In this document: piece after piece, positions 17,441 through 53,902 of the stretch | Numbering within the stretch: the first letter of the stretch is position 1 | Layout: each line of letters begins with the position of its first letter | NCBI GenBank assembly: GCA_038046345.1 | Contig: JBBSWJ010000005.1 | Coordinates: forward strand, 24,784 to 88,783 | Source: Nanobdellota archaeon | GTDB lineage: Archaea > Nanobdellota > Nanobdellia > SCGC-AAA011-G17 > JACPNG01 | Direction: 5' to 3' | Length of the DNA: 64,000 nucleotides | The notes under the pieces: model-generated | What the model was told of the DNA's origin: nothing | Database searches by the model: none | What the model saw: the letters and a program-made list of their open reading frames with translations, nothing else | Translations under genes and position numbers: made by a program

Positions 17441-17548
17441 TGGACCCGTCGGGAAAATCGACGATCCAAGATGTCTAATGCAAATCGTTTTCGAACCCGA
17501 GGCCCCTACCTTGCAAGGGTAATGCTCTACCAGCTGAGCTACGGGCCC
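17441..17548 (-). tRNA. tRNA-Ala(UGC) with a 35-nt intron in the T-loop, located in the 16S-23S spacer
   Basis: RNA: GGGCCCG UA GCUC AGCUGGUA GAGC A UUACC CUUGCAA GGUAG GGGCC UCGGG UUCGAA[35 nt]U CCCGA CGGGUCC A. The G3:U70 alanine identity pair is present and the anticodon is UGC. Confidence 0.85.
17455..17489 (-). other. BHB intron of tRNA-Ala between T-loop positions 59 and 60
   Basis: The outer helix h is the T-stem UCGGG:CCCGA. The central helix H is UUCG:CGAU (3 bp plus U.U). The bulges are AAA and UUU. The inner helix h' is ACGAU(UU):(GG)AUCGU. Cutting after the 2nd bulge nt gives a 7-nt T-loop UUCGAAU. Confidence 0.75.
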
Positions 17549-28202: not shown

Positions 28203-29921
28203 ATGATAAGACAACCAGTTGTGGCATTTGTAGGGCATGTAGACCATGGAAAATCTAGTATACTTGAATTTATCAAAGAAGTTCCTATAACCAAAAAAGA
28301 GGCTGGAGGTATAACCCAGGCCATAAAAGCATATACAGTACCTTTCGAGAAAATAAAGAAAATCTGTGGTACACAGTTAGAATCTTTAAAACAAGATGTC
28401 ACCATACCCGGAATATTATTTATTGATACACCGGGGCATGCAGCATTCACAAGCTTAAGGAAACGTGGCGGGAATATCTCTGACATAGCAATATTGGTCA
28501 TAGACATAAATGAAGGATTAAAACCACAAACAATTGAAGCAATAGAAATATTAAAGACATTCAAAACTCCGTTTGTTGTTGCATTAAACAAAATTGATTC
28601 AATCCAAGGATGGAGACCAAATAAAAGCAAGCCAGTCTTGCAAAATATAAAATCTCAAGCAGCAAGAACACAAACCATGCTTGATGAAAGGCTATACGAA
28701 ATTTTAGGTAACCTATTTACTCACGGGATACAAAGCGAGAGATTTGACAGAGTAGAAGATTTCACAAAAACAGTTGCAATAATCCCCATAAGCGCAAAAA
28801 CCGGTGAAGGTATCCCAGAACTATTGATGATAATAACTGGGCTATGCCAAAAATACCTAGAAGACTCTTTAAAAATTGAAGTTAGCGGAACGGGAAGCGG
28901 GACATTGCTTGAGGTAAATGATGAACGTGGTCTGGGCACCACTCTTAATATGATCTTATACGATGGTACAATAAAAATAAATGATACCATAGTAATCGGT
29001 GGGGTAAATAGTCCTATTACTACAAAAGTAAGAAGTATAAGACTTTATGAAGGGAAAAAGTTTACAACACCAAAGTCAATAAGCGCTGCAGCTTCTATAA
29101 ATATAATCGCACCGAGCATAAAAGATGCAGTGCCTGGCATGCCAATTAAAGTAGCAACTCCAAATAGTTTAGAAGAGATTAAAGTTAGTATACAGAAAGA
29201 AATAAGTGAATCCATTATTGAAACAGAAGAAGAAGGTATTGTACTAAAAGCAGATAGTCTTGGTGGTTTAGAAGCACTTACTAAGTTACTTAAAGAAAAA
29301 AAAGTTCCAATTAAAAAAACCGGTCTTGGTGGCATAACAAAAAAAGACATTGCAACAGCTGCTGCAGCTAAAAATGATATAAATAAAGTGATACTAGCTT
29401 TTAATATACCCACTGAAAAGGATAGTTCTATAAAAATAATACAAGCTGATGTAGTCTATAAAATAATAGAAGATTATGAACGATGGGTCTTAGAAGAAGA
29501 AAAAAAGAATACCAACAAAGAGTTCGAGGGAGTTACTAGACCAGCTAAATTAGAATTTTTACAACATTACGTTTTTAGGCAATCTAATCCAGCTATAATC
29601 GGGGTTAGGATTATTGGGGGCAAAATAAAAGTAGGGATGATACTAATAAAGGATGGTAAGGAGCTTGCAAGAATAAAAGAGATACAGCATGAAAAAGAAA
29701 ATGTAACAGACGCAGTTAAGGGGCAGGAAGTAGCAATTGCATTACCAGGGATAACAGTTAGCAGACAGATAAATGAAGGGGATATTATGTATTCTGACAT
29801 AACCGAGAACGAATACTTAAAGCTTAAAAAATTAAAAAGCTTTTTAAATCCAGAAGAAGTTGAAATTTTAAAGGAGATAGCCCAAATTAAAAGAAAAATA
29901 AAAAAGTTATGGGGGGTATAA
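28203..29921 (+). CDS. infB: translation initiation factor aIF5B (IF-2 homologue)
   Basis: Has [22 protein letters not shown] and NKID GTPase motifs and a four-domain length. Confidence 0.9.
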   Translation: MIRQPVVAFVGHVDHGKSSILEFIKEVPITKKEAGGITQAIKAYTVPFEKIKKICGTQLESLKQDVTIPGILFIDTPGHAAFTSLRKRGGNISDIAILVIDINEGLKPQTIEAIEILKTFKTPFVVALNKIDSIQGWRPNKSKPVLQNIKSQAARTQTMLDERLYEILGNLFTHGIQSERFDRVEDFTKTVAIIPISAKTGEGIPELLMIITGLCQKYLEDSLKIEVSGTGSGTLLEVNDERGLGTTLNMILYDGTIKINDTIVIGGVNSPITTKVRSIRLYEGKKFTTPKSISAAASINIIAPSIKDAVPGMPIKVATPNSLEEIKVSIQKEISESIIETEEEGIVLKADSLGGLEALTKLLKEKKVPIKKTGLGGITKKDIATAAAAKNDINKVILAFNIPTEKDSSIKIIQADVVYKIIEDYERWVLEEEKKNTNKEFEGVTRPAKLEFLQHYVFRQSNPAIIGVRIIGGKIKVGMILIKDGKELARIKEIQHEKENVTDAVKGQEVAIALPGITVSRQINEGDIMYSDITENEYLKLKKLKSFLNPEEVEILKEIAQIKRKIKKLWGV

Positions 29922-31456: not shown

Positions 31457-32695
31457 ATGAAAAAAACAAACGAGGTACTTCAACCAGAAATAAATATTGG
31501 ACTGGTAGGTCATGTAGACCATGGGAAAACAACTATTCTTGAAAGACTATCAGGTAAATGGGCAGATACTCATTCAGAAGAAATAAAACGTGGAATCACA
31601 ATCAGACTCGGCTATGCAAACACTACAATATACCAATGCCCAAAATGCAAAGAATTACCATACACAACACAAGAAAAATGCCAAAAATGTAAGTCTAAAT
31701 CAAGCCCAGTAAGATCAATAAGCTTCATAGATGCTCCAGGTCATGAAACTTTGATGGCAACAATGCTTTCAGGAGCAGCAATAATGGACGCAGCCTTGTT
31801 GTTAATAGCAGCAAACGAAGAATGCCCGCAACCTCAAACTAAAGAACATTTAACAGCATTAAGCATGATAGGAATAAAGAACATTATTATAATCCAAAAC
31901 AAAATTGATCTTGCAACAGAAGACCAACTTAAAAAAAATTACAATCAAATAAAAAATTTTGTTAAAGGAACAATAGCTGAAAAGGCAATAATCATTCCAA
32001 TATCAGCACAACATAATGCAAATATTGATATCTTAGTCAATGCAATACAAGAAGAATTTAAAACACCAAAAAGAGATCCAAAAAAAGTACCTTTAATGCT
32101 TATAGCTAGAAGTTTTGATGTAAACAAACCGGGTACAGAAATACAGCAATTAATTGGTGGTGTAATAGGAGGAAGCTTAAAGCAAGGAGTCATAAAAATA
32201 AAAGATAAAATAGAGATTAAACCAGGAATTAAATCAGAAAAAGATGGAAAAATAACTTATATTCCAATCCAAACAGAAGTTGTAAATATTAATAGTGGAT
32301 CAAACAAACTTAACGAAGCAAGACCCGGCGGTAGCATTGCAATATTAACAAAATTAGATCCTTCAATAGTAAAATCAGATAGTTTATCCGGAGGATTAGT
32401 AAGCCATCCTGGGGGATTACCTGAAACAAGAATAGAGCTATTATTAAAACCAGAATTACTTGAACGTGTTGTTGGCAGCGGTGAAGAAGCTAAAGTAACT
32501 TCCATAAAAAAAGGAGAACCACTAATGCTTAATGTTAACGCAACAGCAACAATAGGAGTTGTCACCGAATTAAAAAAAGATTTAATTAGAGTTAAACTAA
32601 AAAGACCAATCTGTGCATTCAAAGAAGATAGGATTACATTATCTCGATTGCTAGGAAGTAAATTTAGGCTTATTGGTATAGGAAGCATTGCTTAA
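31457..32695 (+). CDS. eif2g: translation initiation factor aIF2 gamma subunit
   Basis: Has [12 protein letters not shown], the zinc knuckle CPKC...CQKC, DAPGH and NKID. Confidence 0.9.
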   Translation: MKKTNEVLQPEINIGLVGHVDHGKTTILERLSGKWADTHSEEIKRGITIRLGYANTTIYQCPKCKELPYTTQEKCQKCKSKSSPVRSISFIDAPGHETLMATMLSGAAIMDAALLLIAANEECPQPQTKEHLTALSMIGIKNIIIIQNKIDLATEDQLKKNYNQIKNFVKGTIAEKAIIIPISAQHNANIDILVNAIQEEFKTPKRDPKKVPLMLIARSFDVNKPGTEIQQLIGGVIGGSLKQGVIKIKDKIEIKPGIKSEKDGKITYIPIQTEVVNINSGSNKLNEARPGGSIAILTKLDPSIVKSDSLSGGLVSHPGGLPETRIELLLKPELLERVVGSGEEAKVTSIKKGEPLMLNVNATATIGVVTELKKDLIRVKLKRPICAFKEDRITLSRLLGSKFRLIGIGSIA

Positions 32696-32697
32696 GA

Positions 32698-33018
32698 TCA
32701 TTCTTTCTTGTTAAAAGCATCATAAACATCATAAATAATATATCCAGCAGCTCTGCCAGGGAAAGTCAAGAAATGACCAACCGCACCACTGATTGGATGA
32801 TCTTCAGTAAACCACTCATATGTCATCTGTTCAATACTTGCTGGATCTCTCCCTAGCAGTGGCCGTATCTGAATCAACATTGCAGAATTTACCAAAAGCA
32901 AATTTATAGAAAAAAGTTTCCAATATAATCCCAGCATGCGCTTAAAGTAATTATCCTCAGAACGAATAGCACGTTTTAGTTTATCAGAGCGATTATCATT
33001 ATACATCTTTTGCCTCAA
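32698..33018 (-). CDS. hypothetical small protein downstream of gyrA
   Basis: ORF that overlaps the gyrA stop by 20 nt and has one hydrophobic segment. Confidence 0.4.
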   Translation of the reverse strand: MRQKMYNDNRSDKLKRAIRSEDNYFKRMLGLYWKLFSINLLLVNSAMLIQIRPLLGRDPASIEQMTYEWFTEDHPISGAVGHFLTFPGRAAGYIIYDVYDAFNKKE

Positions 33019-35428
33019 GATTATTCATGATAACACGTGCAATAGTAGTAAGTTTATCATTTTGGTCCAATCTCATTAGTCTAACCCCTTGAGTATTTCT
33101 GCCAACCACACCAATATCTTTTGCATTAGTACGTATGATTATACCATTTTCGCTCATTAACATAACCTCATTATTCTCTTTAACAGTTTTTATTCCAACT
33201 ACTTTTCCATTCCGCTCTGATGTTTGAATATTAATAACTCCCTTTCCACCGCGGCGAGTTAACCGATATTCACTTATTTCAGTACGTTTACCAAAGCCAT
33301 TTTCTGTAACCGTTAATAAAAAGCCAGCTGGAAGGGCAACCTCCATACCGATTACTTCATCATCACTATCAAGTTTTATACCTCTAACTCCAGAAGCATT
33401 ACGCCCTACACTAGGTACATCCTTATCACTAAAACGAACTGCCATTCCATTTTTAGATGCAAGTATAATTTCAAGATTTTTAGGTGTTAAACGTGCTTGT
33501 ACTAAATTATCCCCCTCGCGAAGTTTTATGCTAGCAATCCCACCGCGGCGTGGATTTGAAAAATCAGACAGTGAAGTTTTTTTTATTACGCCTTTTTTTG
33601 TAGCAAACAGTATAAACAATGGATCACTAAAATTTTTTATAGGCAAAACAGCACTGATCATTTCACCATCAACTAACTGTAATAAGTTAACTAATGCAGT
33701 GCCAAGACCATAACGGGAAATTTCAGGAACATGGAAGACTGGTAACCAGTGCACTTTTCCAAGATTTGTAAATACCAACAGCGTATTATGATTGCTTGTT
33801 ATAAACATTTGTTCAACAATATCTTCTTTTTTAGTAGCTGCACCAACAATCCCACGCCCACCACGTTTCTGTTGGCGATAAGTAACTAATGGTATTTGTT
33901 TAATGTATCCAGCTTTAGTGATTGTGATAACTACATCTGCCTCTTGTATTAGATCTTTGCTTTCTAAAATTAAGTCGGCTTCATTATCAAGCTGAATAAT
34001 TTCAGTTCTTCTGCTATCACCATATAATGTTTTCATTTCAATTGCTTCATCTTTAACAATTCCGAGTATACGTTTCGGATTATCAAGTAAACTTTTTAGT
34101 TCTGCAATAAATTTAATAAGTTCATCATGCTCAGTTTGTATTCTTTCTCGTTCAAGACCAGTAATCTTCTGCAGCTTCATATCAAGAATTGCTTGAGACT
34201 GGATATCAGAAAGATTGTAATTAGCAGTTAATGATTGTTTTGCTACTTCAGCATTCTCAGCTTTCTTTAATAAAACAATTATTGGATCGATATTTTGAAG
34301 TGCAATACTTAAACCAGCAAGGATATGCAAACGCTTCTGAGAAACTTCCAAATCAAATTGAGTTCTTCTGGTGACAACTTCCTTTCTATGAAGAATATAA
34401 CTTTCAAGTGCTAATTTAAGCGGGAATAACACTGGGCGACTTTTATCGAGCGCCAGCATATTAACTCCAAACGTGCTTTGCAGTTGGGAATGTTTAAATA
34501 ACTGGTTTGATAGAACTTCTGGGTTTGCAGAATCCTTTAATATCAGTACTATACTCATACCGCCCCTGTCAGATTCATCTCGTATATCACGTATTCCTTC
34601 TATTACTTTGGTTCTAACAAGGTCAGCTATCTCTTCAATAATTGTTGCTTTATTTGTTTGGTAAGGTATCTCTCTGATAATTATTCTTTTATCTTTGATC
34701 TCCGTTCTTGCACGAACAATAATCTTTCCTCTACCAGTTATGAAAGCATTTTTAATGCCATTAGTTCCAATTATTAATCCGCCAGTTGGAAAGTCTGGTC
34801 CTTTAATAAAACTCATTAATTCTTCAACTGATATGTCGGGATTATCAATCAAAGCAACTAATGCATCACATGTCTCAGTAAGATTATGCGGCGGGATATT
34901 TGTCGCCATACCAACAGCAATACCTGAACTCCCGTTTACTAATAGATTTGGGAATTTAGACGGAAGAACAACTGGTTCTTGTGTAGATGCATCAAAATTT
35001 GGTATTAAGTTCACTGTATTTTTCTCTATGTCTGATAATAATTCCTCACCAATCTTTGCAAGTCTTGCTTCAGTATATCTCATATGCGCTGGAGTGGTAA
35101 AATCTACACTACCAAAGTTACCATGACCATTTATCAATGGGTACCTTAATGAAAAATCCTGTGCCATTCTAACAAGCGAATCATAAATTGCTGAGTCTCC
35201 ATGCGGATGATACCTAAAACAATCACCTACTATCCTTGCAGATTTAACAAAGGGCTTATTATTTTTTAACCCCATGCCATGCATAGAATATAATAATCGC
35301 CTATGAACTGGTTTAAGCCCATCACGAACATCTGGTAATGCTCTCGAGGTTATCACAGACATAGCATAATTTATGTAATTAGCCTTCATCTCATCTTCGA
35401 CTAATTTTTGCTGTATTTGTTCTGGCAT
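32999..35428 (-). CDS. gyrA: DNA gyrase subunit A
   Basis: Has YAMSVITSRALPDVRDGLKPVHRR, the active-site AHMRYTEARL and C-terminal beta-pinwheel repeats. Confidence 0.92.
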   Translation of the reverse strand: MPEQIQQKLVEDEMKANYINYAMSVITSRALPDVRDGLKPVHRRLLYSMHGMGLKNNKPFVKSARIVGDCFRYHPHGDSAIYDSLVRMAQDFSLRYPLINGHGNFGSVDFTTPAHMRYTEARLAKIGEELLSDIEKNTVNLIPNFDASTQEPVVLPSKFPNLLVNGSSGIAVGMATNIPPHNLTETCDALVALIDNPDISVEELMSFIKGPDFPTGGLIIGTNGIKNAFITGRGKIIVRARTEIKDKRIIIREIPYQTNKATIIEEIADLVRTKVIEGIRDIRDESDRGGMSIVLILKDSANPEVLSNQLFKHSQLQSTFGVNMLALDKSRPVLFPLKLALESYILHRKEVVTRRTQFDLEVSQKRLHILAGLSIALQNIDPIIVLLKKAENAEVAKQSLTANYNLSDIQSQAILDMKLQKITGLERERIQTEHDELIKFIAELKSLLDNPKRILGIVKDEAIEMKTLYGDSRRTEIIQLDNEADLILESKDLIQEADVVITITKAGYIKQIPLVTYRQQKRGGRGIVGAATKKEDIVEQMFITSNHNTLLVFTNLGKVHWLPVFHVPEISRYGLGTALVNLLQLVDGEMISAVLPIKNFSDPLFILFATKKGVIKKTSLSDFSNPRRGGIASIKLREGDNLVQARLTPKNLEIILASKNGMAVRFSDKDVPSVGRNASGVRGIKLDSDDEVIGMEVALPAGFLLTVTENGFGKRTEISEYRLTRRGGKGVINIQTSERNGKVVGIKTVKENNEVMLMSENGIIIRTNAKDIGVVGRNTQGVRLMRLDQNDKLTTIARVIMNNLEAKDV

Positions 35429-35429
35429 T

Positions 35430-37316
<1,887 letters not shown>

Positions 37317-43325: not shown

Positions 43326-43900
43326 GAGTAGTAATAGCTGGTGGGCCATATTGTGGTAAAACAACAGTAATAAATGAATTAAGCACACAGGGCTTTAGGA
43401 CAATAAACGAAGCAACAACGGAGATTATTAAAAAGGAACAAGAAGCAGGTAATAACGAACCATGGTTAGAAAGAGAAAAATTTCAGAAAAAAATCATGGA
43501 TCTTCAAATTCAACAGTTTAATTCAGCAAAAAATAATGTAATTACTTTTTATGATCGGGGTTTAGTTGATGGATTAGCATACTATCATTTAGATGGCATT
43601 GACCCACCAAAAGAACTAACAGAACATGCCTCAAAAAAAAGGTATAATCTTGTTTTCATTCCGGATCTTATTGAAGGATTCAAACCTGACAAAACTCGTG
43701 GTGAATCACTTGAAGAACGTAAGCTAGTTCATGAGCTTATCAGAAAATGTTATTCTGATCATGGTTATAATGTAATTAATATACCAAGCATAAGCGTTTC
43801 TGAACGTGTATTGTTTATTAAAAAGAAGATTAGCGAGCATAAACTACTTTTAAAAGATAATATACGCCGAGAGCAGGATTTGAACCTGCATATCCGTTAG
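43310..43900 (+). CDS. AAA_28-type P-loop ATPase/kinase-like protein
   Basis: Has VVIAGGPYCGKTT Walker A and FYDRGLVDGLAY. The start is set at MDNQIRV (ATG 43310). The 3' end overlaps the antisense tRNA-Ser. Confidence 0.7.
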   Translation: MDNQIRVVIAGGPYCGKTTVINELSTQGFRTINEATTEIIKKEQEAGNNEPWLEREKFQKKIMDLQIQQFNSAKNNVITFYDRGLVDGLAYYHLDGIDPPKELTEHASKKRYNLVFIPDLIEGFKPDKTRGESLEERKLVHELIRKCYSDHGYNVINIPSISVSERVLFIKKKISEHKLLLKDNIRREQDLNLHIR

Positions 43901-43960
43901 GAAACAAGCTTACTGGTATAATTTCCAGGCTTGCGCAATACCAAGTTATGCGATCTCGGC
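43865..43960 (-). tRNA. tRNA-Ser(GGA) with a 12-nt canonical intron
   Basis: The acceptor is GCCGAGA/UCUCGGC with discriminator G. The anticodon stem is CAAGC/GCUUG and the loop is CU-GGA-A[AUUAUACCAGUA]A. It has a long variable arm (UCC-UAAC-GGA) and T-arm GCAGG-UUCAAAU-CCUGC. Confidence 0.85.
43911..43922 (-). other. canonical (37/38) BHB intron of tRNA-Ser
   Basis: The central helix is CUGG:CCAG and the bulges are AAA and UAA. Confidence 0.75.
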
Positions 43961-46697: not shown

Positions 46698-47978
46698 TTA
46701 TTTCTTAACTATTTCTAAGCACACACCTGCAGCTACAGTTGCTCCAGCGTCCCTAATAGCAAAACTTGCCATTTGTGGAATAACAGATTGTTTTTCTATT
46801 ATTAATGGCTTTGTTGGTTTTATTTTTACTTCAGCAACGTCATCATTTTTTATAAAATCAGGATTTCGTTGAGCTATTTGACCTGTGGTTGGATCAAGTT
46901 TTCCAACTAATTCAGTAAACTGACATGCTACTTGAGCTGTGTGTATATGGAATACTGGTGTATATCCAACGGTTATAACAGTTGGATGATTGATAACAGC
47001 TATTCTAGCAGTAAACTCACTCACTACTGTTGGCGGATTTGTTTCATGGCCTAGTACATCTCCCCTTGCAATATCTTTTTTGCCTATGCCTCTTACATTA
47101 ATCCCTATATTATCGCCAGGTTCTGCCATTGGCACTTGTTCATGGTGCATTTCAATACTTTTTACTTCCCCTCTGACTCCGGTTCCTTCCCTTGCTGGTA
47201 AGATCATTATTTTATCTCCAACCTTCATAACTCCAGTTTCTATTCTAACAACTGGCACAACTCCTATACCGGTTATGTTATAAACATCTTGTATTGGCAT
47301 TCTTAATGGTAACTCGGTTGGTTTTTCGGGTGGTTTGAATAGATCTAATTGCTCCATTAATGTTGGTCCTGTATACCATTTCATATTCTCAGATTTCTTT
47401 ACTATATTATCCCCTTTTAGAGAGGCTAAAGGTATGAATGGCACTTCTTCTACTTTAAATCTTGCACTTTTTAATAATACACTAACTTCATCTTTTACTT
47501 TATTGAATTTTGCTTGATCATATTGGATAACATCCATTTTATTAACAGCTACTGCTAGTTGTTTTATACCAAAAGTTTTACATAGCCACGCGTGTTCTTT
47601 TGTTTGTTCTTTTATTCCTTCTGTTGCTGCTACTACTAATATCCCTACATCTGCTTGTGAAGCTCCTGTTATCATATTTTTCACAAAGTCTTTATGTCCA
47701 GGCGCATCAATTATAGTATATTCATATTTTTTTGTAACTAATTTTTGATGAGATAAATCTATTGTGACTCCCCTCTCTCTTTCTTCTTTTAGAGTGTCCA
47801 TAACAAATGCAAATTCAAACCCAACCTTTCCTAACTCTGCTGCTTTCTCTTTCAATTTTCTCATAGCTTGTTCATCAACATTACCGCTGTCATACAACAG
47901 TCTACCTACGCTAGTGGACTTTCCATGGTCTACATGCCCAACAAATATTATGTTGATGTGTGGTTTTTCCCTTGCCAT
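46698..47978 (-). CDS. tuf: translation elongation factor aEF-1 alpha
   Basis: Has [14 protein letters not shown] and NKMD. AAGGAG lies 7 nt upstream of the ATG. Confidence 0.95.
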
Positions 47979-48694: not shown

Positions 48695-51049
48695 TTAATC
48701 CCGTCTTTTAACATAGAAGTAACCTACTATAATTAAAACAATAACAATTATTGTTACAATCCACATAATCCTTCCAAATCCTTTCTCACTAATCTTTTCT
48801 TCAATATCTCCGCTAACAGTAGGAATTTCTTCACTTGGTGCTGATTCTTCTTCGGCTACAACCTCAAGATCTTTTAGTTTTAAAACAGTAATTGTTGCAA
48901 CCCCGTTAGTAATGCTTTCTAAAGTTACCTGTGCATTAGGTGTTCCGTCTCCGTCCATATCAACATCCTTTGTTTCTCCAACACTTAATGTTACTTCAGC
49001 TTTGTAACTTTCAATAGTAAAAGTTAAAGTATTCTCATTTACTTTAACAAAAGTGATAGTATGCGCATCAGTGCCACTTAAACTAAATACCTTAATACTG
49101 CCTTGCGATCCAACAAAAGTGGTCTTATCACTTGTACTCAGGTCTGCGTCTAATACTAGTTCCTCACCAGATCTGCTAATACCGCTCCCGCCGCCCGAGC
49201 TTGATGCATCTCCGCCGCCAGTGCTAGTGAAAACAATAAACGTTATTATACCAGTGCTAGTTGTAGTGTGCACAACTTGATCTTTTGTTGTGCATTCAAC
49301 ATTATAAGTACCTGCTTCATTAGTATCAGTATTCTTAAATTCTTGATCACTGCAAGTTTCGCTGGTTTTAGTAATAGTGCTACCACCTGGTTTAGTTATC
49401 TTAATACTACAAGTGTTCATACCACTTACACTATCAGTTCCAGAGCAGCCATATTTTATGCTGCTGAATGGATTGATATTCTTGTCTGCTGGTTCTGTAA
49501 GCGCAACAGTAGGCACCCCTCCGTCAAGAACAAAACTGCCTCTGTAATATTTTGGCCATTGAGCTACTGCAGTTGAATTTATCTTAATAATAAAATTAGT
49601 ATAATTTCCATCGCTGCTATCATTTGCTACACCTTTGCCAATAGTACCGTTATATAGCGTGATATTAGTTGCTCCATAAGCACCTGTAGTTATGTTTGTT
49701 AGGTTTAAGTAACCATTCGCAGCAACCCCATTATTTTCCTCTGTTCCAAAATCTGCAGTAGTATTAAATGTAAAATAACCATAAGCATTTTTATTTCTTG
49801 TATTTGCTGCAACAGCAATTACCCCGCCACTGCCTTCGATTGTAAAGGTTAGCAATGAATTTGCCTGTAAGTACCCTACACCACTCCTTCCAGACCCTAG
49901 TTGGTTTTTATCAAAATCCAATACATTTCCTGCTTCATCAGTTATGTTTAAAGCAGTTATATTAGGCTGACCGTCAAGCCCTATAAACATAAATGGATTA
50001 TCTGTTAAGAAATTATTATCTGATGTGTCATTAATTGTAATGCTATTACCAACTGTATCATACGCTCTTATCACGAATGTTGTTGCATTCCCTTTAGTAT
50101 CCCCCTTATCATTTCCATCAGATCCAGTTCCAACACAGTCTAAATCAATAACCCCTTCGTATGTTCTATTACCAGATTGTGTATCGCTTGTTGTCATTGA
50201 AACATTTCCATACTGCCCTGTAGAAGCAGTTTCTGTAGTTGATGCAGTAGCATTGCTGCTGTTGCATACATAATAAAGGTCTACTGTATCAAAATGGGTA
50301 TCTTGAAGATCAACTTTTACTGTTGTATTTTCTATTGGCATATAAGCCCCATCATTATAAGATCCGGTTTGGAACAAAAGTGATGCCTGGCCAGTCCCAT
50401 TTGCGCGGCTAAAATTCCCTCCAACTAAACCATCAGAGATATTTATAGACATTATTTGTGGGTAGTAAGTGTCTATATAAGTGTACATAAGTGTTGAGTT
50501 TGTTGCTGATGTGCTATCAGCCATATAAATAGTTACATTCCAGTCCTGTCTGCGGCTATGTCCAATACCATCCACTTTATCTGCTGTAAGGTTTACACTG
50601 AATATATAATGACCTGGTAATGTTCCATTATCTGTATTATTCCACCAAATATTACTTAACGTCCCGTCCGTGCTGTTACCAAAGTTCCAGCTTCCTGAAC
50701 CATTTGTTGCATTTGCATGTCCATCAACACCAACAGAACCGATACCATTTGATCTATTAAAATCAAGTCCTGAAGGTTGAAAAGTAAAATTACTAGGAAT
50801 TGTTATATTAACCACTGAAAAATTTGCAGAATCTGCGCTATTAAAAATAATAGAAAAATTAAATCTTACATTTGTGTTGTTCCTTTGAACTATCCCCGAA
50901 AATGCCGTTGTTGTTGCTACTGTGTCGCTTATACTTAAATTTGATCCTGTATTTGCAGTGGTATCAAGATCTGCAATAGTAACACTAAAATGGAATAATC
51001 CAAACAGTAACAGTACAATCATCAATTTAATTTTTGTATTCAATAACAT
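48695..51049 (-). CDS. large surface (S-layer-like) protein, sequon-rich, with C-terminal TM anchor
   Basis: Has a signal peptide, dozens of N-x-S/T sequons, a Gly/Ser linker, and a C-terminal TM IMWIVTIIVIVLIIVGYFY followed by KRRD. Confidence 0.75.
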   Translation of the reverse strand: MLLNTKIKLMIVLLLFGLFHFSVTIADLDTTANTGSNLSISDTVATTTAFSGIVQRNNTNVRFNFSIIFNSADSANFSVVNITIPSNFTFQPSGLDFNRSNGIGSVGVDGHANATNGSGSWNFGNSTDGTLSNIWWNNTDNGTLPGHYIFSVNLTADKVDGIGHSRRQDWNVTIYMADSTSATNSTLMYTYIDTYYPQIMSINISDGLVGGNFSRANGTGQASLLFQTGSYNDGAYMPIENTTVKVDLQDTHFDTVDLYYVCNSSNATASTTETASTGQYGNVSMTTSDTQSGNRTYEGVIDLDCVGTGSDGNDKGDTKGNATTFVIRAYDTVGNSITINDTSDNNFLTDNPFMFIGLDGQPNITALNITDEAGNVLDFDKNQLGSGRSGVGYLQANSLLTFTIEGSGGVIAVAANTRNKNAYGYFTFNTTADFGTEENNGVAANGYLNLTNITTGAYGATNITLYNGTIGKGVANDSSDGNYTNFIIKINSTAVAQWPKYYRGSFVLDGGVPTVALTEPADKNINPFSSIKYGCSGTDSVSGMNTCSIKITKPGGSTITKTSETCSDQEFKNTDTNEAGTYNVECTTKDQVVHTTTSTGIITFIVFTSTGGGDASSSGGGSGISRSGEELVLDADLSTSDKTTFVGSQGSIKVFSLSGTDAHTITFVKVNENTLTFTIESYKAEVTLSVGETKDVDMDGDGTPNAQVTLESITNGVATITVLKLKDLEVVAEEESAPSEEIPTVSGDIEEKISEKGFGRIMWIVTIIVIVLIIVGYFYVKRRD

Positions 51050-51115: not shown

Positions 51116-53902
51116 TTATAATTCTTTTATACCCTTTCTATCTTTTATTTGTTTTCTTATTTTATCTTGCAATGATTCAGGCAGCTTCTCATACATTTGG
51201 TCTACCACAAAATAGCTACCCCGGCCACCAGTAGCGGATCTTAAGTCGCTGCTTAATCCAAACATTTCACCAACAGGTAGCTTGCATTTAACGGTCATTT
51301 GTACTCCCTCTTGTTGCACTTCTAACAATTGCCCTCTTTTATTTTGTATTAATTTAGATACATCTCCTAAATAATCACTAGGCGCTCCAATATGTAATTC
51401 CTGTACTGGCTCATAAATATATGGTTTTCCTGTTAGTATAGCCTCTCTTATCCCCTCTCTTACAGCGGGGTATACCTGGGCTGGCCCACGATGTATTGCA
51501 TCTTCATGTAATTTCATATCAGTAACTCTTACTTTCATCTTCATTGTTGGTTCTTTTGCAAGTATTCCAGCATCGCAAACCTGTTCAAAACCATCTATTA
51601 CTAATTCTATTACTTCACCTATCTGAACTATACCACGAGTGTCATCAACTAATAAGTTTCCCTTGTATATATCCCTATATTTCTTCGCGTCTTTTAAGAT
51701 AACTCCTTTCTCTTCTAATTTTTTAAATGTATCAACATCCTTTTTTTTAAGCCTGCCATCAGGTATTTCTCCGTCCCTCATTAATTGATAAATCTCATCT
51801 TCTAAAGGTTCAACAATAAAAAAGAATTTATTATGTTTATTTGGGGATTTTCCTTCTTTTTCTTCAGATACCTTGGTTACCGCTTCTCTGTACACAACAA
51901 TAGGCGGGCTTGTCCTTACTTGCAAACCTTTTTCTGTTTTTATCCTATTCTCAATAACTTCTAAATGTAGTTCGCCCATTCCAGAAATTAAGTTTTCTCC
52001 TGTCTCCTCATTAATTTCGATTGTTATTGTTGGATCCTCTTTGTTTACTTGCTTTAGTACTTCAACAAGTTTTGGCAAGTCAGCAGGAGATGTTGCTTCA
52101 ATACTTTTTGTAACAACCGGGTCAAATATATGTTTTATTGCTTCAAACGGTTCCATTTCTTCAGATGCAATTGTCTCTCCAGCAAACACATTTTTTAACC
52201 CCACTAAACCTACAATATTACCAGCAACTGCTTTTTCAACGGTTACTCTTTGAGCTCCTTTGTATATCGATACCTGTTGTATTCTAATCTTTCTTTTTGC
52301 ATTGATCATATATGCATCATCGCCCTGTCTTACAGTTCCAGAGAATAATCTACCAGCCGTTACTTCTCCTGCATGTTTATCAATAACAATTTTTGTTGCT
52401 ACAAAAGCAGTCGGACCATTAGGATTACAGTTTACTAATGACTTTCCAATTTCAGAATCTAAATCTCCATGCCATATTTTTGGCACTCTGTATTTCTGAG
52501 CGTCTACAGGGTTTTTATGGTGTGCTATTACCATCTCGAGGACAACTTCATGCAATGGCGCTTTTTTTGCTATACCCTTCCATTCATCATTTTCATATGC
52601 TTTTATAACATCTTTAAAGCTCAGCCCATTTCTTAGCATATAAGGAGCAGATAACGCCCAATTATGAAATGCAGATCCAAATGCTACACTCCCATCTTTA
52701 ACATGAACTAACCATTTTTCTTTAAATTCTTCTGGGGCTACACTCTGTATGAACTTGTTTATCTCAGTTATTATTTTCACAAATCTTTCTTGCATTGCTT
52801 CAGGTGTTAGTTTTACTTCTTTTATTAAACGATCAACTTTGTTTATGAATAATACTGGCTTGACTCTTTCTCTTAACGCTTGACGCAACACGGTTTCTGT
52901 TTGAGGCATTATACCTTCTACTGCATCACATAATACTATTGCCCCGTCTACAGCTCTCATCGCTCTTGTTACATCTCCTCCAAAGTCTACATGCCCGGGC
53001 GTGTCAATTAGATTTATTAGAAAATCTTTTCCATTAATTACGTGAACCATAGATACATTTGCTGAATCAATTGTGATCCCGCGTTCTTGTTCATCTGCGT
53101 GGAAATCCAAAGCTAATTGTTTTCCAGCTAACTCTTGTGACATCATCCCGGCTCCTGCCAATAAATTATCTGAGAATGTTGTATTATGGATCACCATTCC
53201 CTCAGCAACAAAATTATGATTGTCTGCAACTGTAAAATCGTATACCATATCTTTCTGTGTTATCTCTTTTGAATTAACCTCACAGTACATAATATCTTCA
53301 CTTAATATTTTATTCTCTTGGATTAATATTTGTCCATTATTCTCTATTTTTTCTTTATAACCACTTAATGAGATTGATATTGCATCTTTTTGGTGCGGCC
53401 AACTTTTCATGCAAACTACAAGATCCTTCAATTCTAATTCTCTTGCTTCTTTATAACAAAAGTCACGTGCGAGCCTATCCAAAACTAAATAACGATGTTC
53501 TGGTGTTGTTTCAATTGAGCTGCCATTTTTTAATTTTATTTTTATTAGTTCACCGCCAGTTAATTTCCAAGCAAGGCTGATTAGTTTCTTTTCTATTTTC
53601 CCTGAATCTTTATTTAATGATAATACCTTAACACATTGGCTTGTAACATCATAAACAACATGACCATTCTTTTTTTCAAATAGTTTTCCATTTTTTATGA
53701 TCTTATCAAATAGCTTCTCTGCCTGTATAACTGAGCTATCACCTAAAATAATTCTAGACTCACCAGAAATACATTTCCCATGATATCGTTCTATGAAGGG
53801 TTAACTCGATAGAAAATCGATATGGGCGCATATAGCTATATTTCTGATTTGTTCCGGTTCATTCATTAATTTAACAACTTTTTCTGCTATCTTATCCGCC
53901 AT
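51116..53902 (-). CDS. fusA: translation elongation factor aEF-2, interrupted by a 33-nt BHB intron and a 197-aa mini-intein
   Basis: Exon 1 (53902..53816) encodes MADKIAEKVVKLMNEPEQIRNIAICAHID. Exon 2 (53782..51116) starts HGK, continues through the intein, then TTFSDNLLAGAG...DTPGHVDF...NKVDRL...HEDAIHRGPAQ. The lengths are 87 and 2667 nt and both are in frame. The predicted mature protein is about 720 aa. Confidence 0.85.
53183..53773 (-). mobile_element. mini-intein (197 aa) inserted after the P-loop GK of aEF-2
   Basis: Starts CISGESRIILGD (block A). It has ETTPEHRY (block B, TxxH) and ends VAEGMVIHN, followed by the +1 Thr of the extein (TTFSDN). Confidence 0.8.
53783..53815 (-). other. 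33-nt BHB intron within the aEF-2 coding sequence (contains an in-frame TAA)
   Basis: RNA 53826->53777: CCCAU-AUCG-AUU-UUCUAU-CGAGUUAACCCUUC-AUAGAA-CGAU-AUC-AUGGG. All three helices are perfectly Watson-Crick, with two 3-nt bulges separated by 4 bp. Excision restores AHID|HGK. Confidence 0.75.

Follow-up and report, generated by a model that had tools for sequence, protein, structure and literature searches.

Two elements in the P-loop of aEF-2

The window analysed here is a stretch of 64,000 nucleotides (nt) from a Nanobdellota archaeon (assembly GCA_038046345.1, contig JBBSWJ010000005.1, positions 24,784 to 88,783 of the forward strand); the host is a Woesearchaeota-like DPANN archaeon. On its minus strand lies the gene for the translation GTPase aEF-2, whose P-loop AHIDHGKT is interrupted twice within 12 codons, by 33 nt with the features of a bulge-helix-bulge (BHB) mRNA intron and by a mini-intein of 197 residues (Table 1). 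In reading order, the gene runs from MADK…NIAICAHID through FLSS*PFIERY (the 33 nt) and HGK into CISGESRIILGD…TTPEH…VYDFTVADNHNFVAEGMVIHN, and then from TTFSDNLLAGAG… to its TAA stop.

The host gene is intact outside the two interruptions. Exon 1 aligns with aEF-2 residues 1-29 in 80 related loci, the C-extein starts with T33-TFSDNLLAGAG… and holds an intact diphthamide-site motif (HEDAIHRGPAQ), and the aEF-2 domains GTP_EFTU, EFG_III, EFG_IV and EFG_C are all detected with hidden Markov models (HMMs). Once the 33 nt and the intein are both removed, a protein of 720 residues remains that matches the aEF-2 model TIGR00490 over positions 4-718 of 720 with 1051 bits. No second copy of aEF-2 is present in the 64-kb window. 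The original prediction, made by a model from the letters alone, had placed a 197-residue intein at 53773..53183, 9 nt after the intron, and its coordinates, length and peptides prove exact upon translation. The insertion between GK and T of the P-loop is likewise confirmed as K32|T33 of AHIDHGK|T; the insert is in frame within a conserved host motif, and its removal rejoins AHIDHGK-TTFSD and restores the host.

Table 1. Coordinates of the interrupted aEF-2 gene, its two elements and other features of the window
Feature	Position in window	Strand	Basis
aEF-2 gene	ATG 53902 to TAA 51118-51116	minus	translation of window:51116-53902
aEF-2 exon 1, codons M1-D29 (…IRNIAICAHID), ending within the first half of the P-loop	53816..53902	minus	translation
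Predicted 33-nt BHB (hBHBh') mRNA intron	53783..53815	minus	fold, BHB geometry, covariation
In-frame stop TAA inside intron	53803-53801	minus	translation
Full BHB motif including exonic strands	53777..53826	minus	fold
BHB outer helix, 5 bp	53826-53822 with 53781-53777	minus	exon-exon pairing
BHB central helix, 4 bp	53821-53818 with 53788-53785	minus	fold
BHB bulges, 3 nt each, on opposite strands	53817-53815 and 53784-53782	minus	fold
BHB inner helix, 6 bp	53814-53809 with 53794-53789	minus	fold
BHB loop	53808-53795	minus	fold
Exon-2 codons H30 G31 K32, last N-extein residues, between intron and intein	53774..53782	minus	translation
Class-1-type mini-intein, 197 residues	53183..53773 (591 nt, 197 codons)	minus	HMM, alignment
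Intein Cys1	53773-53771	minus	translation
Intein block B, T90-P-E-H93	53506-53495	minus	translation
Intein block F, D179	53239-53237	minus	translation
Intein H196-N197	53188-53183 (Asn197 53185-53183)	minus	translation
aEF-2 C-extein, Thr+1 (T33) to L720 plus TAA stop	51116..53182 (Thr+1 codon 53182-53180)	minus	translation, HMM
784-residue open reading frame	48695-51049	minus	
EF-1alpha	46698-47978	minus	
tRNA-Ser(GGA)	43865-43960	minus	Rfam
gyrA and gyrB, adjacent	32999-37310	minus	
aIF2-gamma	31457-32695	plus	
aIF5B	28203-29921	plus	
Spacer tRNA-Ala(TGC)	17441-17548	minus	Rfam

Structure of the predicted mRNA intron

The 3' end of the 33-nt element lies 9 nt (codons H30, G31 and K32) ahead of the first intein codon, and a T on either side leaves the exact ends of the element uncertain by 1 nt as judged from the sequence. 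The RNA around it folds with a ΔG of -19.7 kcal/mol (z=-3.25) into the geometry CCCAU-AUCG-[AU|U]-UUCUAU…AUAGAA-CGAU-[AU|C]-AUGGG, in which there is not a single G·U pair. Cutting after the second nucleotide of each bulge takes out exactly 33 nt, joins GAU|CAU and brings HID|HGK in frame, with …ATATCGAT|CATGGGAAA… as the predicted spliced exon junction; the same cut rule yields the 37/38 junction of a tRNA-Ser in the window. The original prediction's reading of the 33 nt as an intron removed at the RNA level is thereby supported by the BHB geometry and, as set out below, by covariation in relatives.

The motif is the best formed of its kind in the window. When both strands of the 64 kb are searched under strict hBHBh' rules, the aEF-2 intron is the sole candidate that has no G·U pair, a 5-bp outer helix and a 6-bp inner helix. 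A scan for BHB motifs that would merge open reading frames (ORFs) is too permissive, its candidates outside aEF-2 all lying inside continuous ORFs or having weak helices, and it revealed no second convincing mRNA intron in the 64 kb; a second copy of the intron sequence with up to three mismatches is also absent from the window. Group I and group II self-splicing introns are excluded because the element measures only 33 nt and because Rfam, at its gathering threshold, detects only rRNAs and tRNAs in the window. A target-site duplication was considered as the origin of the central helix, the sequence of which is palindromic (ATCGAT), and was rejected as a general explanation, as the alleles at the I28 and H27 sites described below have non-palindromic complementary strands.

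Intron alleles in related archaea

Two samples of related loci place the window's intron in a family. The genome sample consists of 80 fetched species-representative aEF-2 loci (from genomes mostly labelled Woesearchaeota or Nanoarchaeia, the closest 75% identical) and the window itself, 81 alleles in all, and the metagenome sample of 80 loci fetched with the intein as query, the N-terminal junction being visible in 71. Most 'long' matches among the fetched loci were discarded as insertions, since they turned out to be the downstream EF-1alpha gene joined to the match. A P-loop insert of 30-38 nt is present in 10 of the 81 genome alleles, and 17 of the 71 metagenomic intein loci have an insert of 30-44 nt just 5' of the intein. 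After removal of duplicates, 22 distinct intron alleles occupy four neighbouring positions: D29|H30 (n=16), inside the I28 codon (n=4), H27|I28 (n=1) and inside the K32 codon (n=1). All of these sites lie 1-15 nt upstream of the intein insertion point, 16 of the 22 alleles at -9, and the inserts of the relatives measure 30, 31, 32, 33, 35, 38, 39, 42 or 44 nt, many of them out of frame.

Each of the 22 alleles has a BHB or near-BHB motif at the AHIDHGK-restoring junction, the motif being of a relaxed form in some of them; the L028 allele needs a 4-nt 3' bulge, and the first central-helix position is A·G in 10 of 22. Counted with a purpose-written script that ignores kinship, 171 of 198 cells of the central and inner helices (86%) are paired, a share that drops to 36-44% once the 3' strand is shifted by 1-2 nt against its partner, and each inner-helix position is occupied by 5-6 different pair types across the 22 alleles. 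The inner helices vary from UUCUAU/AUAGAA in the window to CCCGCUUU/AAAGCGGG and GAAUAUAAA/UUUAUAUUC. A stop in the frame of exon 1 is present in 22 of 22 alleles, against about 60% expected per allele from shuffles, and an unspliced mRNA would therefore yield only a peptide of about 30 residues. Exon codons within the BHB strands favour the pairing-competent synonymous choice in intron-bearing alleles: H30 is CAT in 16 of 16 (versus 68/120), D29 is GAT in 16 of 16 (versus 60/120) and A26 is GCC in 11 of 16 (versus 29/120).

These data also bear on the idea that the 33 nt stay in the RNA, either because ribosomes bypass them in the manner of T4 gene 60 or read through the stop, or because this gene copy is a pseudogene. 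An insert that is in frame, contains a single stop codon and forms a hairpin after the D29 codon would suit such a scenario, which we nevertheless regard as very improbable. Read-through and bypass are excluded because the relatives' inserts range from 30 to 44 nt, many of them out of frame, and matching take-off and landing codons are not conserved; a T4 gene 60-type bypass was rejected in particular as there is no landing GAT in register and the ends of the relatives' gaps are varied. Read-through would moreover add 11 residues to the P-loop at a TAA that is also the gene's own terminator, whereas excision by the BHB cut rule leaves every allele exactly in frame.

Several individual alleles are informative about the family itself. 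The aEF-2 gene at L007:3049-3130 (JAHJRB010000067.1), which has no intein, is split within the K32 codon (AA|A) by a BHB-type intron of 30 nt that lies only 1 nt from where inteins insert and that has a 10-bp inner helix and no outer helix. Introns with similar cores (AGTTTAAGTT…CTTAACT) and different central helices occur in the sister genes L040 and L043 at sites 4 nt apart (D29|H30 and inside I28), which suggests intron sliding. Many intron loops (L024, L028, L137, L100, L120, L056 and others) have in common a TAAG…CTT(A) motif, the TAA of which usually supplies the in-frame stop; the shared motif suggests either that the introns descend from a common ancestor or that the stop is under selection. 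One instance of the motif, TAAGCTTCTGCTT, is found in the introns of both L024, which has no intein, and L137, which has one.

The aEF-2 mini-intein

Intein blocks A, B, F and G are all present (Cys1, TPEH, VYD179FTV…HNF, His-Asn and Thr+1). The Hint domain that the original prediction had assumed is borne out by three HMMs, each above its curated cut-off: PF14890 (Intein_splicing; E=7.1e-24, 84.8 bits against 35.8), TIGR01445 for the N-terminal region (E=3.8e-16, 59.8 bits against 24.5) and TIGR01443 for the C-terminal region (E=9.7e-6, 25.7 bits against 15.6). The best PDB matches are the archaeal mini-inteins CDC21-1 (6RPP, 8e-9) and Pho RadA (2LQM/4E2T, 4e-8 to 1e-7), and PRK14845 matches at 2e-11.

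Among the 80 fetched species-representative loci, seven more have a homologous intein at K32|T33, 42-53% identical to that of the window. Four of these (L008, L019, L022, L057) are 476-522 residues long and contain two LAGLIDADG motifs, while three (L020, L037, L075) measure 186-213 residues. Pfam detects no endonuclease domain in the 197-residue intein, and in an alignment with L008, L019 and L057 it lacks exactly the whole endonuclease insert, so the label mini-intein, given at first from the length, is correct. The junction residues Cys1, terminal Asn and Thr+1 as well as TPEH are all in place as first read, and C1, T90, H93, D179, N197 and T+1 are invariant in an alignment of seven sequences, which argues for an active intein; from these conserved catalytic residues we infer that it would splice autocatalytically, with Thr+1 as the first residue of the C-extein.

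An exhaustive HMMER scan of 1.84 billion (1.84e9) representative proteins recovered 496 relatives at E<=1e-3. The top matches are aEF-2 precursors with an intein after AHI[DH]HGK at about residue 34, followed by inteins at GK|T/S of aIF5B, an FtsY/SRP-type GTPase, a VirB11-type ATPase and SMC; the insertion site that was to be compared with those of known P-loop inteins thus proves to be the same GK|T/S position as in aIF5B and other NTPases. A word-index protein search with the intein as query (E<=1e-5) returned nothing, which is a limit of the index and not an absence of relatives, because the HMMER scan and the locus searches found them. As part of the reading of both elements given below, the intein very probably is an endonuclease-less descendant of a LAGLIDADG intein family that occupies the same site in many aEF-2 genes of Woesearchaeota and other DPANN archaea. 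Taken alone, it adds an ordinary member to the set of P-loop inteins already known. InBase reportedly lists an EF2 intein in Methanopyrus kandleri.

That the segment could instead be a degenerate Hint remnant that no longer splices, or the whole arrangement an assembly artefact, is suggested by Thr+1 being a less common nucleophile and by the loss of the endonuclease, and single-sequence structure prediction is uninformative on this point (AlphaFold gives a pLDDT of 38 and no usable model for the intein). Against this stand the invariance of the six residues across homologues that are 44-53% identical, the independent assembly of the same architecture in 18 other contigs from different samples, the essential nature of aEF-2 together with the lack of a second copy in the window, and the close relationship by sequence to solved P-loop inteins (Pho RadA). 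Of all the alternatives weighed here, we consider this one the least probable.

Two observations concern the wider intein family. The intein of endonuclease size in aEF-2 locus L022:1462-3000 has one in-frame TAG in the linker ahead of the endonuclease domain (…KENILKEGL*DIAD…), which could reflect a pseudogene, an assembly error or something else. A group of divergent aEF-2-like hosts (P0004, P0006, P0011, P0014; L081, L082, L085, L092 and others), possibly an aEF-2 paralogue, has the P-loop SAHIHHGK and a C-extein starting NTALTDN or NTAFTDN; inteins of the same family occupy the same position in this group, and the intron is found in none of these loci.

Independent or coupled elements

Intron and intein come in every combination. 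Of the 81 genome alleles, 8 have the intein, 10 the intron and 2 both (the window and L037), and the site is contiguous, without an intein, in 73. The stacked arrangement is also seen in 18 related loci (1 genome locus and 17 metagenomic loci), with full-size as well as mini-inteins. Across the two samples, the intron occurs without an intein in 8 loci, together with a mini-intein in the window, L037 and 4 metagenomic loci, and together with an intein of endonuclease size in 12; 60 loci have the intein and no intron. Both elements are scattered on a neighbour-joining tree of the exteins, and close sisters differ (L037 has both and L016 none; L017 has the intron and L005 none). The nearest relatives of the window, L001, L002 and L003, have neither element.

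This patchy distribution and the varied combinations favour two elements that were independently gained and lost at one hot spot. The most economical reading is therefore that two unrelated selfish elements come and go at the same conserved site and are stacked when both happen to be present, and we assign to it, both splicing steps included, a probability of roughly 0.85. The earlier suggestion that the most conserved codons of the gene served as a landing site for both elements is consistent with the patchy recurrence at these codons in related aEF-2 genes. The shared hot spot also agrees with the general preference of inteins and homing introns for conserved sites (PMC2814812).

Several points weigh against this reading. 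A purely independent model does not predict that the intron should be about twice as frequent at loci with the intein (19/79) as at those without (8/73), an excess that duplicates and phylogeny could explain. The codon-skew and stop-codon statistics ignore shared ancestry. Many relatives offer only a relaxed BHB, for which a broad-specificity endonuclease is needed, and the genes for the splicing endonuclease (EndA) and RtcB are absent from the 64-kb window; the presence of the splicing machinery is deduced from the tRNA introns of the window, as two intron-containing tRNAs, one of them with its intron at a non-canonical site, indicate that BHB splicing operates in the host. Finally, the RNA and the protein splicing steps are both read from sequence, and the order and mechanism by which the two elements were gained are likewise deduced.

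The co-occurrence counts raise the alternative of a composite, in which the intron is not independent of the intein. The intron might hitch-hike over 9 bp by co-conversion when the LAGLIDADG endonuclease homes, introns might be born in the repair of endonuclease-induced breaks, or an intron might alter the DNA target and so modulate homing or confer immunity with the protein unchanged. The tight clustering of the intron sites at the intein point, the two-fold excess of introns next to inteins, the 12 loci that combine an intron with an intein of endonuclease size and the related core in the intein-less L024 and the intein-bearing L137 all fit such a coupling. At conserved sites, immunity is hard to evolve at the protein level (PMC2814812), and interference between neighbouring homing elements, which affect each other's homing, is documented (PMC10643990). 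On the other side, 8 alleles have the intron without an intein and 60 loci the intein without an intron, the association is weak and its counts ignore phylogeny and duplicate contigs, and the window's own intein has no endonuclease. A simple form of the immunity idea is disfavoured, since it predicts a negative association and co-occurrence is above, not below, expectation. We consider it unlikely, if a good deal less so than the two alternatives above, that the BHB introns arise, spread or persist because of the neighbouring intein's LAGLIDADG endonuclease as one half of an interacting selfish pair. If true, an RNA-level archaeal intron would for the first time be seen to form a coupled unit with a protein-level intein, and endonuclease-dependent mRNA splicing would be common in DPANN archaea.

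Proposed maturation pathway

With two independent elements at one site, expression of aEF-2 would involve two consecutive splicing events. The pre-mRNA would fold locally into the canonical hBHBh' motif, the archaeal tRNA-splicing endonuclease would cut within both 3-nt bulges, and a ligase of the RtcB type would join the exons, which would eliminate the 33 nt with their in-frame TAA and restore …HID|HGK…. Translation of the spliced mRNA would produce a precursor of 917 residues, from which the intein would be released by class-1 protein splicing. An acyl shift at Cys1 would be followed by transesterification to Thr+1, Asn197 would then cyclise with the aid of His196, and a final acyl shift would join K32 to T33. 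The products would be the 720-residue aEF-2 and the excised 197-residue intein. Active aEF-2 would thus depend on two sequential maturation steps that could in principle gate translation capacity.

Splicing context in the window

An archaeal 16S-23S operon is detected in the window by Rfam, and two tRNA genes contain introns; both tRNAs were found by Rfam, while ARAGORN found no tRNAs in the window. The T-loop of the spacer tRNA-Ala(TGC) is interrupted (59/60), at a non-canonical position, by an intron of about 35 nt, for which an hBHBh' motif can be drawn by eye (CTCGGG-TTCG-[AA|A]-ACGAT…ATCGT-CGAT-[TT|T]-CCCGAC) with a mismatch at the same central-helix position as in many of the mRNA introns. 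The tRNA-Ser(GGA) has a 12-nt BHB intron at the canonical position 37/38 (CAAGC-CTGG-[AA|A]TTATA-CCAG-[TA|A]-GCTTG).

The window's other translation GTPases aIF5B, aIF2-gamma and EF-1alpha show no interruption despite their GHxDHGK-type P-loops; elsewhere, aIF5B is a common intein host. Directly 3' of aEF-2, an ORF of 784 residues without a Pfam match has many N-x-S/T sequons and a C-terminal hydrophobic segment and probably encodes a glycosylated surface protein; in many relatives EF-1alpha holds this position. Adjacent gyrA and gyrB genes of bacterial type are also found in this DPANN archaeal window.

Relation to known systems

The P-loop has been described as the commonest intein site (PMC4513877, PMC4760082), whereas translation proteins carry few inteins and the main hosts tabulated do not include aEF-2 (PMC4760082). 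The literature searched yielded no account of an intein or an intron in aEF-2, nor of a BHB intron in an mRNA of DPANN archaea; for archaeal pre-mRNA splicing that literature, covered to 2025 and including a 2025 paper on the splicing endonuclease, cites cbf5 alone (PMC2738675). Relative to this literature, both the intron family and the stacked arrangement are new, and the latter is recurrent, not unique to the window. A second archaeal gene, encoding an essential translation GTPase, would thus have a whole family of mRNA introns of the tRNA-machinery type in DPANN archaea. At these introns, gene-calling software cuts aEF-2 short or breaks it into pieces, which can affect how complete these genomes are judged to be and how aEF-2 serves as their phylogenetic marker. 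The locus is also a natural system in which to follow the gain, sliding and loss of BHB introns in coding sequence and any interaction that they may have with homing endonucleases.

Among inteins, those of Pho RadA (2LQM/4E2T) and CDC21-1 (6RPP) share with the window intein the class 1 Hint fold and the same residues in blocks A, B, F and G, and the Pho RadA intein also sits at the end of a P-loop. These two mini-inteins measure about 170 residues; unlike them, the window intein resides in a translation factor, and sequence identity to them is low (E 1e-7 to 1e-9). Closer in kind is aIF5B (IF-2; PRK14845; 'aIF2' in Table 2 of PMC4760082), a translational GTPase whose intein follows GHVDHGK, again at the GK|T/S position, and the window intein has the aIF5B inteins P0031, P0041, P0045 and P0050 among its closest relatives. 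As a host, aIF5B is a paralogue of aEF-2, and the window's own copy is uninterrupted.

The nearest precedent for the intron is the BHB intron in the cbf5 pre-mRNA of Crenarchaeota (Watanabe 2002; Yoshinari 2006; Yokobori 2009, PMC2738675). Both are short BHB introns in a protein gene with patchy gain and loss among relatives; excision of the cbf5 intron depends on a ligase and the endonuclease that also splices tRNAs, a route that the aEF-2 intron would presumably share. Unlike cbf5, the aEF-2 intron is found in DPANN archaea, lies inside the most conserved catalytic motif of its gene, adjoins an intein and exists as multiple alleles at four neighbouring positions. Excision defined by structure, ligation of the RtcB type and tolerance of relaxed BHB variants are also features of the non-canonical archaeal tRNA introns, which are processed by broad-specificity endonucleases, and of HAC1/XBP1 (IRE1/RtcB). 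In those systems, however, the substrates are tRNAs, or a eukaryotic stress-regulated mRNA cut by a different nuclease, whereas aEF-2 is a housekeeping archaeal mRNA.

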